From a virus (taxonomy: Duplodnaviria > Caudoviricetes), in IMG/VR virus record IMGVR_UViG_3300037067_019009, positions 64,001 to 128,000 of that record: a stretch of DNA of 64,000 nt, one strand, 5' to 3'. Below are positions 40,472 to 50,219 of this stretch, piece by piece. Position numbers and translations under genes: made by a program. The notes beneath the pieces are model-generated. The model did no database searches. It was not told the origin of the DNA and worked only from the letters and a program-made list of their open reading frames with translations. Numbering within the stretch: the stretch's first letter is position 1; each line of letters opens with the position of its first letter.

Positions 40472-42142
40472 TTATATGTTTCCCAAAGCGAATTGGGAAA
40501 TAAGATTTGGAGTAGCGGTATCAAACCCCACCAAATCTAGCATCCCAGAGTCATCCGGGTCTGCGATAGAGAACCCATTGCTTACCATCCCTACCACTAC
40601 GGATCTGGCGTTAGGGTTGATCTTCTTCCGGTACTCAGCGAGAGCCTGGGTGGGATGAATCTTTCCAGCCCAAGTCTCGCTATCCGTGTACACAACGAAT
40701 AAATCTATATTTAGATTGTTCTTTAATGCGTATAAAATAGGCAAAGAGCAATCTGTGCCACCGGCATCCAGTCCCTCTATATATTGGCATACGTCGCTTA
40801 TCCGTTGCTTACTACTGATATCAAGAGCAGAGACACTAGGAATACGACGATTAGTAGAGTCGGCTGTAAAACCTGTCACGACGACGTTCTTCTCAACAGC
40901 CTGGGTAACTAAAGCCATCGCAGCAGAACCAACTCTTGGAGTCAGTCCTGGGCAACCAGCAATGTTCACCCAAGTCATCGACGCAGATAAATCAAGAGCC
41001 AGCATTATATTTTTTCCGGTTGGCTCAACGTTTCCAAATGCAGTGTAGAATGCTCTATTGAGCGCGTCCACTACCTGTGTTACTGGCGTCCAGCTCCCAC
41101 TGCCCCTTACTCCCATCCCTGATCCGTATGTCAGAAGCGCCTTGAGTACATCTATAGGATGGACTCTACTCTTCCTGATCATCTCAACATCTGATAGCTT
41201 ATCTACCACGAAGTTGATAATGTCGAACTTCCCTGGAGCTAATAACCCACTCTTACTAAAGTTGCCCAGGTTCCTGAGTATTGCATGAAAAGGCATCTCC
41301 TGCAACAACTCCAGCTGCACATCCGGATCGCTCTTGAACTGAGAAGGTATGCACTCATGTGGAAGATTATAATCCTTAATTAAAGATATTATACCTTTCT
41401 TCCCGTCTTCAGTTTTAGCTTGCTCGAACGCGTAAATTATCTTAGCTGGAGTACCAGCAAACGTTTTTGCATCCAAGCCCTCGCGCACAACCCCGCGCTT
41501 CTTGTCTTCCCATCCATTAGTGCCATGTGTACACCACTGAAGGATGTTAGAGAAGAGATCGGAGTCCGCTTTAACATGAGATAGCCTGAGCAAATCTCTA
41601 TGGCTCCACCCATCACGCTGCTGGTACTTAGTAACTTGCAGTGACAAGGCACCGGCCGACTTACCTAAGTACCAATCCGCAACAGCGTTCTTCAGTAGGC
41701 GCCCCCATCCGCGAAGGTTAGTAACGTATTCAGCGAAGTGGAATAAGTGAGTTCCGATCCTGCAGACTTGGGGCAAAGCCGCAGCAGCTGCTTTCTTTGT
41801 TTCCACATCTCCAAAACTCATACACGCGGCGAGGGCGAAGATACAAGGGTCATTCTTTGGCGCTCGTCCAGCCTGAGAGATATCGACTATCTCTTTAACC
41901 AACTCGACGCCACTTGCCCTAATTACATTCTCCATAGCAGCAAAACTCTTCAGAGTCATATCTTTCTCTGTAGCATAATAGCTGCCACCCTCAGTGCCGA
42001 GGATCAAGAACCTCTTCACCTTCATCCACTCACTCACTTCGAATGAGTATCCCCCTGCCTGATTCTCCACCATCGACTTACCTGGAATAGGCTGGGTTTG
42101 CGGAGTTTTCTTTACAGACACATGCTTACTGTAGTTAGTCAT
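40472..42142 (-). CDS. rsr: Ro60/Rsr TROVE-domain RNA-binding protein with vWA domain
   Basis: NQAGGY, RFLILGTEGGSYY, VCRIGTHLF, KYQQRDGWSHRDLLRLSH, RVHP, ALDLSASM, GGTDC, TDSET, GFD. Confidence 0.97.
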   Translation of the reverse strand: MTNYSKHVSVKKTPQTQPIPGKSMVENQAGGYSFEVSEWMKVKRFLILGTEGGSYYATEKDMTLKSFAAMENVIRASGVELVKEIVDISQAGRAPKNDPCIFALAACMSFGDVETKKAAAAALPQVCRIGTHLFHFAEYVTNLRGWGRLLKNAVADWYLGKSAGALSLQVTKYQQRDGWSHRDLLRLSHVKADSDLFSNILQWCTHGTNGWEDKKRGVVREGLDAKTFAGTPAKIIYAFEQAKTEDGKKGIISLIKDYNLPHECIPSQFKSDPDVQLELLQEMPFHAILRNLGNFSKSGLLAPGKFDIINFVVDKLSDVEMIRKSRVHPIDVLKALLTYGSGMGVRGSGSWTPVTQVVDALNRAFYTAFGNVEPTGKNIMLALDLSASMTWVNIAGCPGLTPRVGSAAMALVTQAVEKNVVVTGFTADSTNRRIPSVSALDISSKQRISDVCQYIEGLDAGGTDCSLPILYALKNNLNIDLFVVYTDSETWAGKIHPTQALAEYRKKINPNARSVVVGMVSNGFSIADPDDSGMLDLVGFDTATPNLISQFALGNI

Positions 42143-42188: not shown

Positions 42189-42325
42189 TGGGTGGTGGTG
42201 GGACTCGAACCCACACGTCCTTTCGGACAGCTGTTGCTGATAACCCTAACTGTCGGCTCTTAATAGAGAGCTAGTATTCGCTAGGATGTATATACGGCCG
42301 CGTCTGCCATTACGCCACACCACCC
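42189..42325 (-). ncRNA. tRNA-Y hybrid: class II tRNA body with a permuted Y-RNA module in place of the anticodon loop
   Basis: GGUGGUG/CACCACC acceptor, D arm, GUCCGAAAGGAC variable arm, GUGGG UUCGAGU CCCAC T arm; insert AUCCUAGC..CUAGCUCU-loop-AGAGCCGA..GUUAGGGU UAUC. Confidence 0.8.
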
Positions 42326-42350
42326 GTATTTGAAACACGGATACATATAG

Positions 42351-42426
42351 AATATGCTGAGCAAGTAAGATAGCTATGGGGGTGATCATTGGCAGTGATA
42401 ACCATAGCCAATCGGCTCAGCATATT
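42351..42426 (-). ncRNA. Mini Y RNA (third in transcript)
   Basis: GCUGAGCCGAUUGGCUAUGGUUAUC...CCAUAGCUAUCUUACUUGCUCAGC: bulged-C lower stem, upper stem, UUAUC. Confidence 0.85.
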
Positions 42427-42437
42427 ACTAATAGTTC

Positions 42438-42500
42438 TGCCGGACAAGTAGATTGGTGACGATGTTGTCCTTATGATAACCGTCACCATTCGGCCCGGCA
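42438..42500 (-). ncRNA. Mini Y RNA (second in transcript)
   Basis: UGCCGGGCCGAAUGGUGACGGUUAUC...CGUCACCAAUCUACUUGUCCGGCA. Confidence 0.85.
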
Positions 42501-42506
42501 CATATC

Positions 42507-42579
42507 TTCCACCGAACAAACAAATTGGTCATGGAGCGATCAGTACAAGTGATAACCATGACCTAACGGCTCGGCGGAA
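42507..42579 (-). ncRNA. Mini Y RNA (first in transcript)
   Basis: CCGCCGAGCCGUUAGGUCAUGGUUAUC...CCAUGACCAAUUUGUUUGUUCGGUGG. Confidence 0.8.
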
Positions 42580-42590
42580 CAACCTAAACA

Positions 42591-42619
42591 ATTATATGTT
42601 ATTTATGTTTACTTGTCAA
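42591..42619 (-). promoter_or_regulatory. Perfect sigma70 consensus promoter for the Y array and rsr
   Basis: TTGACA-17 nt-TATAAT on the minus strand. Confidence 0.9.
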
Positions 42620-47141: not shown

Positions 47142-47218
47142 CTAGGAAACAAAGTGGGAACTGAAGAGAGTTGTAGCACGGATCATCGATTCCAAAGGAG
47201 ATCTACCCTCTGGAATAG

Positions 47219-47295
47219 TCGGCGGGTAAGGATTTGAACCCCAGTCCTCCTACTAGTACATTACTGTAGACACTCTACCACTGAGCTACCCGCCG
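47219..47295 (-). ncRNA. tRNA-like RNA with enlarged 12-nt anticodon loop
   Basis: CGGCGGG UA GCUC AGUGGUA GAGU G UCUAC [AGUAAUGUACUA] GUAGG AGGAC UGGGG UUCAAAU CCUUA CCCGCCG A. Confidence 0.7.
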
Positions 47296-48813
47296 GTGTT
47301 TAAACTGCCCCTACTCATATGCTCCCCATAAAACCTTCAGCTCTTAACGGCGGCGTAATTTCCCACCTTTACCCAGAAGGGAACCATTTTCCTGAAGCCC
47401 CCAGTTTGAAGCTTGCACGGTATAAACACACAATACGCAGTGCTGCTACTGACTCCGACACTTATGATCTTCGTGCCGGGATATCCAAGCACCATCGTGT
47501 CACTTACTTCAATGATCTTTACAAGCTCGCAGTCTTGCTTAAGTAGCAACCTTCTTATCGCTACTTCTACTTTTGTGATCCACATTGCTAATTTCATTTT
47601 ATTTGTCCTTTTCATTATAGGCCGTACTTGTCGTAATATGCCCGCAAAAGAAAAACTTATAGTAGACTCCTACCTTCAAATCGATAAACCTTCGTCTTGG
47701 CATAGCACTTCAACCCTTTTTGTAAATCATATCCCTATAGCCTTTACTTAGCTTTCCTACTTTAACTTTTCCATGTGTTTATCCGCAATGACTTGAGGAT
47801 AATTACTAGACACGCTTATGGTTCTATTACATACTCCAACTCGGAGTCTGCCTTCTACAAAAGCATCCATGAATGATTTCTCGAATTCGTTCTCGGGTAT
47901 AATATTTATAAAAGCCGCTGTGGGATCAACTAGATTTTGCGAAAAGGTAACTTTCACTATATATTCCTTCTTACTTCTTACCACTCCAACTTATTTCCCA
48001 CTGAACTTTAAACCAAGTCCAGGGCTTATACCAACAACATCTACCAACTCTCCTAGCAGACACAGCTATAAACCTCGGGGAGGGTACGCCATCCTTCGGG
48101 CAGACTACAGGAACATTACCTCGACTAAAAACCGTCTTACATTGTGGACATTGCTCACAAAACTCGAACTTCCCCATGGTTGTGCCCCTCAGCGAGTTAT
48201 ATAATTATACGTACACGCTCTAGTTATAGAATAAGTATTGTAGATTTTGTCCTGCTACACGACATATACAGTGATGTCATCCGAATGCTGCCCCGCTGCT
48301 GCTGGTCGTTGACTACAAAAGTAGTAGGATATCCTCCCACAACTCATCAGCATCTAGTTCCCCTGTGTTCGGTTGACAGGACAAATATAAAGACAAGACA
48401 ACAAGCTATCTTGAAGGATATATTCTCGGGAGTTACATGCAAAGTAAACCCAATCCTCAACATGCTTACCCACAGGGGTGTTTCCATATTGGGAATGTCA
48501 AGATAACTACTCTACCCACAACCTTGCTCTACTGCCTTGCCTATTGATCCACCAGGAGATCATCCCTTGCAGTATCAATCTCTACTACTAGGCTACTAGA
48601 CCATTATTCTGCCACCGCAGAAAAATTAGCAATAAATAGAACAAAGACGACCAGTAGAATCTCACTGGTACCATAGTTTCCATCACAGGCGGTGGTAATA
48701 CAAGCTATAGCGGAGCCAAGGGCTCCTACTAAATCTATAATAGCAACAACTGATTTCATAACATCATACCTTCCATTCATCTAATAGAATAGACTAGCTA
48801 TAAATATAAGCCA

Positions 48814-48905
48814 TCAGCGGGGAAGGACTCGAACCCCCGACCTTGCACATGTTACAGTGCTTTCTCCTTAAATAGGAGTCGCTCTACCAACTGAGCTACC
48901 CGCTG
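48814..48905 (-). ncRNA. tRNA-like RNA with two hairpins in place of the anticodon arm
   Basis: CAGCGGG UA GCUC AGUUGGUA GAGC..CUCCU AUUUA AGGAG..GCAC UGUAACAU GUGC..GGGGG UUCGAGU CCUUC CCCGCUG A. Confidence 0.7.
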
Positions 48906-49644
48906 ACGAAACATCAAGTAAGTTATAGGCTTTCCCTCAATCCGTGACCTTACACTTTTGGTAAATCCGACGCTGACGCTCTAGGTTTTGCGCAAGATTA
49001 TGCTCTGTAAGACTCGGAATACCAAGAAACTCCCTGACACACTTCCTCTTACAGTCCATACAGTCATGTAGACTCGAAAAGCAGCAGAATTTATCGAAGC
49101 CTCCGGCATATGCGGCAAGCATCGAAGTAAGCATCTCGGCAGCGTCCTCAGGATCAAGAAATTCATATCCTACCGGGAGGCTAATATGCATACGCTGATA
49201 TATAGTCCAGTAATCCTTATTATGTTCCGGATGTGGAATGACATAACTATACCGGAACCAAGGGTCATCGTTTCGCTTATTAACACACTCGGGAATTAAA
49301 GAGATGCATACTTCCGGCATCCAGGAGGATTGTGTAATCACAATGCGCTCAGAATGTGGAACGATATCTATAATATAAAAGAAGCGGTCCTTATCATTAC
49401 CAGCGAATTGAAGTACATACTTCTTACCAGTACTGGCCTGATTAAATTCGCAAACAGCTTCTTTAATAGGAGCAATAAGCTTATCATGCAGAGCTTTCTG
49501 CTGGCTTTGAGCCTCCTCTAATTCCACAACTTTCTGCTTCTCAACACCTTGTATAAAGGACCTGGCCCTGTTTACGATACCAATTACTTCATTCATCTTG
49601 CCCATGCACTTACCCCACTTGTAGATACGCTCGCAAAAGAAGAT

Positions 49645-49871
49645 TCAGCCGGGTAGGGATTTGAACCCTCGACCTCCCGCACGTAAGTAAGATTACATAG
49701 CTATTAACTTTTTCTCAGGACATGTTGTGCGTTGGCGCCTATGGCACTCAGTACCATGCCGCTTACAAGCAGCATATATTGTCGATACTCGCAAGTTAGT
49801 TATGTTCTCTCTGCTCATGGATGTTAACCCCACATGAACAACAGGCGCTCTGTCCGCTGAGCTACCGGCTG
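49645..49871 (-). ncRNA. tRNA-like RNA with 160-nt structured insert at the anticodon
   Basis: CAGCCGG UA GCUC AGCGGACA GAGC G CCUGU [49840-49681] GCGGG AGGUC GAGGG UUCAAAU CCCU..CCGGCUG A. Confidence 0.75.
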
Positions 49872-50219
49872 ATAATTACTACTTAGAAACTGGGGTACTA
49901 TACTCTTTAAAGAACTTATATCTTAGCGGTATAGAGTTTTCACTACACCACATGCAGCCTCTATTCTTACCACTATCTTCTTGTACATCGCCCAATTATG
50001 AAATATAACAATAACATCACTACTATTGCTGGTACCGCTCCAATTATTTGGCCGGGACCATAATAAAAAGGGCCGCTACCACTATCCAATGATCTAGCAG
50101 CTTCCGCATGTTGACGTACCGTACACCCATCTTCAAGTACTACCATAGGATACAGCATAGCACTAAATAACAGACTAACCCCTATAATAATGATAACCAC
50201 AAATGCATGCTCTAGCATT

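Follow-up and report, generated by a model that had tools for sequence, protein, structure and literature searches.

A 64,000-nucleotide (nt) stretch of phage DNA (Duplodnaviria; Caudoviricetes), here called the window, contains rsr, the gene for a Ro60 orthologue, and just ahead of it a 137-nt RNA that joins the body of a transfer RNA (tRNA) to the helix of a Y RNA. The window covers positions 64,001 to 128,000 of IMG/VR record IMGVR_UViG_3300037067_019009, which belongs to a jumbo phage, is 212,668 base pairs (bp) long and is estimated to be 84% complete. Read 5' to 3' on the minus strand, the operon consists of a promoter, three minimal Y RNAs, a leader hairpin, the tRNA-shaped RNA and rsr (Table 1). 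No terminator-like sites were seen on the minus strand from the promoter to rsr. The tRNA-shaped RNA occurs once in the entire 212-kb record, and the start of rsr at 42142 lies 46 nt past its last base on the same strand.

Ro60 binds the bulged helix of Y RNAs. The bacterial Y RNAs in print are circularly permuted tRNA mimics that lack a free CCA end (Wang et al. 2018, 10.1101/312249). Known as YrlAs, they adjoin rsr in 254 bacteria and 22 phages; each starts with the Ro 5' strand and V, continues through the T arm, the loop-closed 'AS' and the D arm, and ends with the Ro 3' strand (Chen et al. 2014, PMC4201824). Their tRNA-like domains fold as tRNA, and a proposal relayed by Wang et al. (10.1101/312249) derives them from dimeric tRNA transcripts. 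The YrlA of M. smegmatis is an exception: it is cut by RNase P and CCA is added to it (PMC4201824).

The window RNA has the same kinds of parts in the order of an ordinary tRNA. From its 5' end it runs through G-1, the acceptor strand GGUGGUG, U8 and G9, the D arm, G26, an 11-nt linker, the 3' strand of the upper Y-RNA stem (S2b), GAAUACUA and the 3' strand of the lower stem (S1b). The loop CUAUUA then leads into S1a, C-GA-CA, S2a, UAUC, two small hairpins, the T arm, the acceptor strand CACCACC and C73. The second small hairpin, capped by GAAA, is the extra arm. The acceptor stem is open-ended, with 7 bp, or 8 bp counting G-1:C73, and the acceptor, D and T arms stand in cloverleaf order. Nucleotides that make the tertiary contacts of tRNA are present: U8, A14, A15:U48, the D-loop GG, the UUCGAGU T loop and G53:C61. 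CCA is not encoded; C73 is followed by AAC. The closest match to the D region among 570 tRNAs called by ARAGORN in the fetched loci is a tRNA-Leu. The window copy has no anticodon stem of 5 bp with a 7-nt loop, ARAGORN makes no tRNA call on 42189-42325, and the Rfam tRNA model (RF00005) has no match there. Nor does any Rfam family, YrlA (RF02553) included, match at E <= 10 between 41900 and 43000.

Table 1. Features of the Y RNA/rsr operon; positions are those of the window
Feature	Position	Strand	Evidence or remark
Sigma-70 promoter, TTGACA-17-TATAAT	42591..42619	-	12/12 consensus matches; predicted to drive the Y RNA/rsr operon
Minimal Y RNA 1, hairpin	42508..42578	-	RNAfold -28.9 kcal/mol
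Minimal Y RNA 2, hairpin	42436..42502	-	RNAfold -28.8 kcal/mol
Minimal Y RNA 3, hairpin	42351..42426	-	RNAfold -28.3 kcal/mol
Leader hairpin, CCGUGUU-UCA-AAUACGG, 7 bp	42324..42340	-	last two G are G-1 and G+1 of the tRNA-like RNA
tRNA-shaped Y RNA, whole unit, 137 nt	42189..42325	-	G-1 at 42325, C73 at 42190; model R1 179 bits, model R2 102.8 bits
Acceptor 5' strand, GGUGGUG	42318..42324	-	7/7 pairs with 42191-42197
D arm, GCGU-AAUGGCAG-ACGC	42300..42315	-	A14, A15 and GG present
S2b, AUCCUAGC (Y-RNA upper-stem 3' strand, first here)	42280..42287	-	8 bp with 42243-42250
Lower stem S1, loop-closed, GCUCU-CUAUUA-AGAGC	42256..42271	-	S1b-loop-S1a
Bulged C, GA, linker, S2a (GUUAGGGU), UAUC	42239..42255	-	Y-RNA 5'-strand signature, as in the three neighbouring Y RNAs
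Small hairpins AGC-AACA-GCU and GUCC-GAAA-GGAC (variable region)	42217..42238	-	RNAfold and sequence
T arm GUGGG-UUCGAGU-CCCAC and acceptor 3' strand CACCACC	42191..42214	-	sequence reading
rsr (Ro60 orthologue), 556 aa	40472..42142	-	Pfam TROVE 1e-38, vWA_Ro60 9.9e-55

What occupies the anticodon end? The insert reads AUCCUAGC / GAAUACUA / GCUCU-CUAUUA-AGAGC / CGACA / GUUAGGGU / UAUC, and the string GAGCCGA..GG(G)UUAUC is common to the tRNA-like RNA and to the 5' strands of the three upstream Y hairpins. The pairing partners of this string lie upstream in the tRNA-like RNA and downstream in the Y hairpins; the order of the module is therefore rotated. Within its Ro helix, GCCGACAG has GNCGA without the second A of the published motif GNCGAAN0-1G, and the helices are present; in minimal Y RNA 2, GCCGAAUG matches that motif (Chen 2014, PMC4201824).

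The three minimal Y RNAs (42351-42578, minus strand) have no tRNA domain and share their promoter with the tRNA-shaped unit. Minimal Y RNA 1 has a free-ended lower stem, GAGC-C-GU, an upper stem, GGUUAUCA and a 7-nt apical loop; minimal Y RNA 2 reads GGGC-C-GAAUGG ... GGUUAUCA ... ACUUGUCC; and minimal Y RNA 3 combines a 12-bp lower stem, GAGC-C-GA facing ACUUGCUC, and GGUUAUCA. The first and third are capped by a 4-bp stem and 7-nt loop (CUUGUAC and CUGCCAA). Their 5' strands (GAGCCGAUUGGCUAUGGUUAUCA and relatives; GnnC-C-GA ... GGUUAUC ... CUUG) closely resemble those of vertebrate Y RNAs.

RNAfold gives the 137-nt RNA a free energy of -52.1 kcal/mol (z = -2.95 against shuffles). The minimum free energy (MFE) fold of the 451-nt leader preserves the acceptor stem at its full 8 bp, together with S1, S2, the T arm, the small hairpins and all three Y hairpins; the D-arm region is mis-paired, and in MFE folds the leader hairpin is shortened to 5/7 pairs. 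An initial annotation made from the letters alone had described much of this architecture. Every feature that it listed for a class II tRNA body without encoded CCA is present between 42325 and 42189 on the minus strand, and the Y-RNA helix that it reported in rotated, loop-closed order does share its signature with the three Y hairpins and has its partners upstream. Its statement that the anticodon loop has been replaced is right in placing the module at the anticodon end; the module lies between the D arm and a short hairpin and is not a strict exchange for a 7-nt loop. It also put the RNA just upstream of rsr, which is so, and gave the distance as 47 nt. A switch involving downstream sequence, also suggested, finds no support: the downstream bases form a 5-bp hairpin of their own and the tRNA-like fold persists in the leader.

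We looked for relatives in 80 phage loci encoding relatives of the window Ro60. A scan of these loci for bodies with 7/7-paired acceptor stems around a long insert gave many units of the same layout. An nhmmer search with the 137-nt sequence returned only one weak full-length relative, in locus L033; structure-aware models were needed, and MAFFT alone misplaced the insert in the alignment. A covariance model made from the window sequence alone (R1) retrieved 16 further units from the phage loci. A second model made from 17 units (R2) found 21 units in 12 phage loci from IMG/VR at 56-103 bits. We then ran R2 on 80 bacterial rsr loci, mostly from metagenome-assembled genomes of Chloroflexota, Armatimonadota and Myxococcota, several of them on contigs of 2-8 Mb. 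It found 111 units of at least 51 bits in 53 of the 80 loci, on the rsr strand in all but one locus; none of these units had been used in model building. In many loci two to four tRNA-shaped units stand in a row, or units lie downstream of rsr.

In total, models derived from the window recover 131 other units (132 with the window copy), with compensatory changes in every helix. In the phage alignment 94.4% of cells are paired, against 64.4% after shuffling and 36-48% when the partners are slid; the corresponding values for the bacterial alignment are 94.3%, 71.5% and 36-50%. In neither case did any of 500 shuffles reach the observed value. Alignments fitted to a model favour pairing, a bias that the slid controls carry equally. 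The acceptor stem is paired in 100% (phage) and 99% (bacterial) of cells, and all seven pairs have compensatory changes. S2 (helix 3) is paired at 86% and 87.2%, again with compensatory changes in all eight pairs, and S1 (helix 4) at 94% and 96.7%, with such changes in every pair of the phage alignment. The D arm (helix 2) is paired at 97-99% and the T arm (helix 7/8) at 99.5-100%. The Y signature, consisting of S1a, the bulged C and GA ... UUAUC, with CUUG ahead of S1b, is conserved across the family alignment; the small hairpins of the variable region are heterogeneous. The Rfam tRNA model scores homologous units at 40-59 bits. The window RNA is thus one member of a large family and not a one-off.

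These results bear out the central proposal of the initial annotation, that this RNA is the opposite permutation to YrlA, its acceptor end being free and its Ro module closed by a loop: covariation is found in 21 phage and 111 bacterial units. The further roles that it suggested, as an intermediate in evolution between tRNA and YrlA or as a substrate for RNase P, the CCA-adding enzyme or a synthetase, are hypothetical. The covariance models that it called for, run near rsr genes, did reveal covariation in the permuted stems of homologs at phage and bacterial loci. Its account of YrlA, with free Y-stem ends and a loop-closed acceptor, agrees with Wang et al. (10.1101/312249). A search with the Rfam models, likewise suggested, gave no YrlA match on the window and only matches below threshold and out of register on arrays of units.

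Some variants and neighbours of these units deserve a record of their own. In variant units at L043:5136-5289 and L031:4668-4791 the Ro module and T arm are kept, and the D arm is apparently swapped for a GAAA-capped 5-bp hairpin. In a Chthonomonadaceae contig, minimal Y hairpins (L093:1070-1141, 1782-1883, 1905-1974 and 2376-2457) are interspersed with tRNA-shaped units. They match the nematode sbRNA family RF01656, two of them above the gathering score (42.8 and 40.7 bits against 38).

A further feature lies at the ends of the units. In bacterial tRNA-His, the pair G-1:C73 makes RNase P leave G-1 in place and is the main identity element for HisRS. The window copy carries G-1:C73. Across the 111 bacterial units, position -1 pairs with position 73 in 72%, against 40.5% after shuffling (reached in 0 of 500 shuffles). 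An independent scan of loci L089-L168 found G-1:C73 in 38 of 89 units (43%) and in 7 of 170 ordinary tRNAs (4%) from the same loci (odds ratio 17, p = 2.7e-14). Since U-1:A73 is the second commonest pair, an eighth acceptor pair as such is favoured.

We also considered whether the hairpin after UUAUC is a retained anticodon arm. It forms a 4-bp stem with a 7-nt loop in 19 of 116 units (16%), 13 of them with CUNNNAA; L050:2261-2390, L075:1646-1781, L032:2480-2607 and L022:1662-1789 are among the units with such an anticodon-like hairpin. With so few units fitting, and with MFE loops that vary from 3 to 12 nt, we rejected the idea as a feature of the family. Bxz1, whose YrlA has the published canonical form, has AUUGCAA at the equivalent place.

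What, then, is this RNA? Its tRNA body is competent to form an L shape with open ends, and a conserved bulged Y-RNA helix, closed by a hairpin, sits at the anticodon end. We consider it likely that the RNA is a Y RNA, that is, a partner RNA of Ro60, of the YrlA kind but wired as an ordinary tRNA. A single transcript from the perfect promoter would include the three minimal Y RNAs, the tRNA-shaped RNA and the rsr message. The hairpin-closed bulged helix would be the docking site for the phage Ro60 ring, and the tRNA-like elbow and free acceptor end would be offered to a tRNA-recognising partner; the effector may be a factor that recognises tRNA, which is what has been proposed for YrlA. The ends would be made by tRNA maturation enzymes of the host: RNase P, which would probably leave the 8-bp stem because of G-1:C73, as well as a 3' nuclease and the CCA-adding enzyme. 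The same maturation would free the upstream Y RNAs and the rsr message. Finally, a permuted YrlA could arise in a tandem array if the 3' half of a unit were joined to the 5' half of its downstream neighbour, so that the two layouts might interconvert. A more ambitious version appears doubtful: that maturation follows that of tRNA-His, with G-1 left and CCA added, that some units are charged by an anticodon-independent synthetase such as HisRS, and that the unpermuted form is ancestral to permuted YrlAs.

Several observations weigh against the Y-RNA interpretation or complicate it. In the 3' strand of the window copy, ACUA-G stands in place of the family consensus ACUU-G. This removes the G.U pair beside the bulged C and takes the Ro site slightly off consensus. 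Neither RtcB nor a CCA-adding enzyme was found in the phage record (84% complete), so maturation would rely on the host. And adjacent units of arrays are similar enough to allow pairing across units (acceptor 6.17/7, S1 4.34/5).

There is also the question of register: could a canonical permuted YrlA array have been taken half a unit out of phase? Such an artefact does occur. In Gordonia phage Cashline, two canonical YrlAs, whose free ends form lower stems of 8 and 12 bp and whose acceptor stems are closed by GCGA and UUCG, give rise to a false 49.5-bit R2 match spanning their junction. The window, however, holds a single unit, and the sequence upstream of it contains no T arm, nor the sequence downstream a D arm; the elements next to it are complete hairpins, the rsr start follows 46 nt beyond, and S1 is closed by a 6-nt loop. 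With no T or D arm to spare in its surroundings, this single unit can be read in the unpermuted order only. We tested the artefact for the window unit, rejected it on its singleness and flanking context, and give it almost no credence. In the 111 bacterial units, the loop closing S1 has a median length of 4 nt, is at most 8 nt long in 86 of them, and in some can be recognised as a tetraloop (UUCG, GAAA or CUUG, for example). Across 35 pairs of adjacent units, S2 strands pair better within their own unit (7.03/8) than across units (5.29/8), with the own partner better in 22 pairs and worse in 1; acceptor strands score 7.0/7 and 6.17/7, respectively. On unit arrays the Rfam YrlA model reaches no more than 27-39 bits, well short of its gathering score of 69, and its matches begin at the T arm of a unit and end at the D arm of the unit that follows (L110 1476-1629; L050 2054-2173 and 2188-2321). 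The strong cross-unit complementarity shows that the layouts could easily interconvert in arrays.

Other explanations accept the order of parts and differ on its purpose. The intact tRNA body, with its closest D-region match in a tRNA-Leu, could belong to a working class II (Leu-like) tRNA gene whose intron-like insert is removed to give a decoding tRNA, and three further tRNA genes of this phage (47218-47296, 48813-48906 and 49644-49872) carry additional RNA within the anticodon arm or next to it. Yet the window insert bears the signature of the three neighbouring Y RNAs, and its helices are maintained by compensatory changes in 132 rsr-adjacent units. If the module is excised from the window copy, GCCGU faces ACAGC with a C.A mismatch around a 14-nt loop, and no anticodon loop remains; the insert, at 45-60 nt, is far below the size of a group I intron; and the 4-bp stem with 7-nt loop after UUAUC is confined to the 19 units already mentioned. 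A decoding tRNA is thus very improbable. Somewhat less so, though still unlikely, is a processing signal, in which RNase P and a 3' nuclease, attracted by the tRNA shape, cut the polycistronic transcript and so release the Y RNAs and the rsr mRNA, and the Ro-like module is a by-product. The single promoter, the lack of a terminator ahead of rsr and the position of the unit exactly between Y RNAs and rsr all suit this idea, and tRNA-like punctuation is a known principle (RNase P-made 3' ends of long noncoding RNAs are cited in 10.1101/312249). But an ordinary tRNA would do for the purpose, the Ro module is conserved and covarying, and punctuation does not require runs of two to four units or units downstream of rsr. 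A processing role is compatible with a tRNA-shaped Y RNA and no replacement for it; processing is probably part of the function. No likelier than the processing signal is a decoy or sensor for tRNA-directed enzymes (anticodon nucleases, tRNA-targeting defences, or HisRS by way of G-1:C73), guarded or reported on by Ro60. The enrichment of G-1:C73 in units over tRNAs (38/89 against 7/170, p = 2.7e-14) and the subset of units with CUNNNAA hairpins resembling anticodon loops are in keeping with it, and Rsr has been linked to the RtcB repair operon, which is responsive to damaged tRNAs (PMC7790460). The idea is purely inferential, however; more than half of the units do without G-1:C73, 16% have the anticodon-like hairpin, and the window copy has no 7-nt loop.

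Several tRNA and YrlA genes met in these comparisons are unusual in themselves. The three other phage tRNA genes, all on the minus strand, have an insert of about 150 nt (49644-49872), a 20-nt insertion before the T arm (48813-48906) and a 12-nt anticodon loop (47218-47296); the Y-RNA signature is absent from all three. Adjoining phage rsr genes are tRNA genes that measure 95-98 nt and whose extra arm is unusually long (L028:2107-2204, L038:1648-1744 and L065:5152-5246), one of which has a CCCUAAA loop and might read the amber codon. The tandem canonical YrlAs of Cashline (MW534378.1, L083:2170-2470) lie upstream of a Ro-like gene and are unannotated in GenBank; the Rfam YrlA model gives one of them just 42 bits, against its gathering score of 69. 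Agrobacterium phage Atu_ph07 has two tRNA genes with 30-45-nt inserts at the anticodon position and no Y-RNA signature (L169:1501-1621 and L173:1501-1608), far from its Ro60-like gene, which is annotated 'Clp protease-like protein'. In the named phages Boopy, Zooman, Beuffert, Sollertia and Atu_ph07, the matches inspected were not bona fide units, an inspection that did not extend to a 140-nt match in Zooman (positions 96754-96893 of its record). Among the phages and loci screened we found no cultured system with a tRNA-shaped Y RNA.

A large covarying family of unpermuted units alters the published picture of bacterial Y RNAs and bears on the origin of Y RNAs from tRNAs. It supplies a concrete link between tRNA and YrlA, since the back half of one unit and the front half of the next make up a permuted YrlA. 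Few YrlAs have been reported from delta-proteobacteria and cyanobacteria, and some of these have 'longer acceptor stems' (PMC4201824). Many of the tRNA-shaped units come from Myxococcota, which may account for this scarcity; we infer that delta-proteobacteria and cyanobacteria carry the unpermuted form. Genome annotation will miss these genes or label them odd tRNAs. For Ro60 ribonucleoproteins, the gain is a free acceptor end of the tRNA type, whose processing by RNase P, CCA addition and possible charging are directly testable. If maturation and charging do resemble those of tRNA-His, the Ro60 rings of phages and bacteria would have a tRNA handle that can be aminoacylated, or that at least ends in CCA; it could plug Ro60 into translation or tRNA surveillance, or bait tRNA-targeting defences.

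How does this RNA compare with those already known? Like YrlA (RF02553), it adjoins rsr on the same strand and keeps the nucleotides of tRNA tertiary contacts. The parts and their circular order are also shared: from the lower stem through the bulged C-GA, the upper stem and UUAUC to a small hairpin or variable loop, then the T arm, the acceptor stem and the D arm, and finally the upper-stem 3' strand, CUUG and the lower-stem 3' strand. The difference is where the circle is cut. The YrlA chain is opened at the lower stem, whereas this one is opened at the acceptor stem; its acceptor ends are therefore free and its Ro helix is closed by a loop. With the processed M. smegmatis YrlA it has in common a 7-bp acceptor stem and free tRNA-like ends of the kind recognised by tRNA enzymes. 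That RNA, however, consists of two paired pieces with free lower-stem ends, while the tRNA-shaped RNA forms one continuous chain, closed at the lower stem, that is in tRNA order from the start.

The bulged-C helix, with GGUUAUC after the upper stem, is also found in D. radiodurans Yrn1, metazoan Y RNAs and stem-bulge RNAs (sbRNAs; RF01656), and the minimal Y RNAs of the window share the plain hairpin form of Yrn1 and the metazoan Y RNAs. The Ro stem of Yrn1, the metazoan Y RNAs and the sbRNAs is made from the 5' and 3' ends of the chain, and in Yrn1 it occupies the acceptor position (PMC4201824); the lower stem of the tRNA-shaped RNA is instead a local hairpin with CUAUUA as its loop. The Yrls of Thermus phages are plain hairpins (PMC12135203). 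We found no published description of the unpermuted layout in full-text searches, which did not cover two reviews or the supplements of Chen 2014, so that a prior mention is not fully excludable.

Transfer-messenger RNA (tmRNA) genes, both forms of which are present in the fetched loci, provide a precedent for a tRNA-like family that exists in standard and circularly permuted order (one-piece, RF00023; permuted, RF04321). The analogy is one of topology only: tmRNA is another RNA, with another partner protein and another function. Devoto and colleagues are said to have described in 2019 'enigmatic' inserts in the tRNA genes of huge phages. The window RNA resembles these in its intact tRNA body, in the extra RNA at the anticodon end and in coming from a large phage; unlike them, its insert is identifiable, conserved, covarying and linked to rsr. 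The tRNA-shaped Y RNA is real and conserved, and it appears not to have been described in print. What it adds is a new wiring within a known RNA class; it does not constitute a class of its own.
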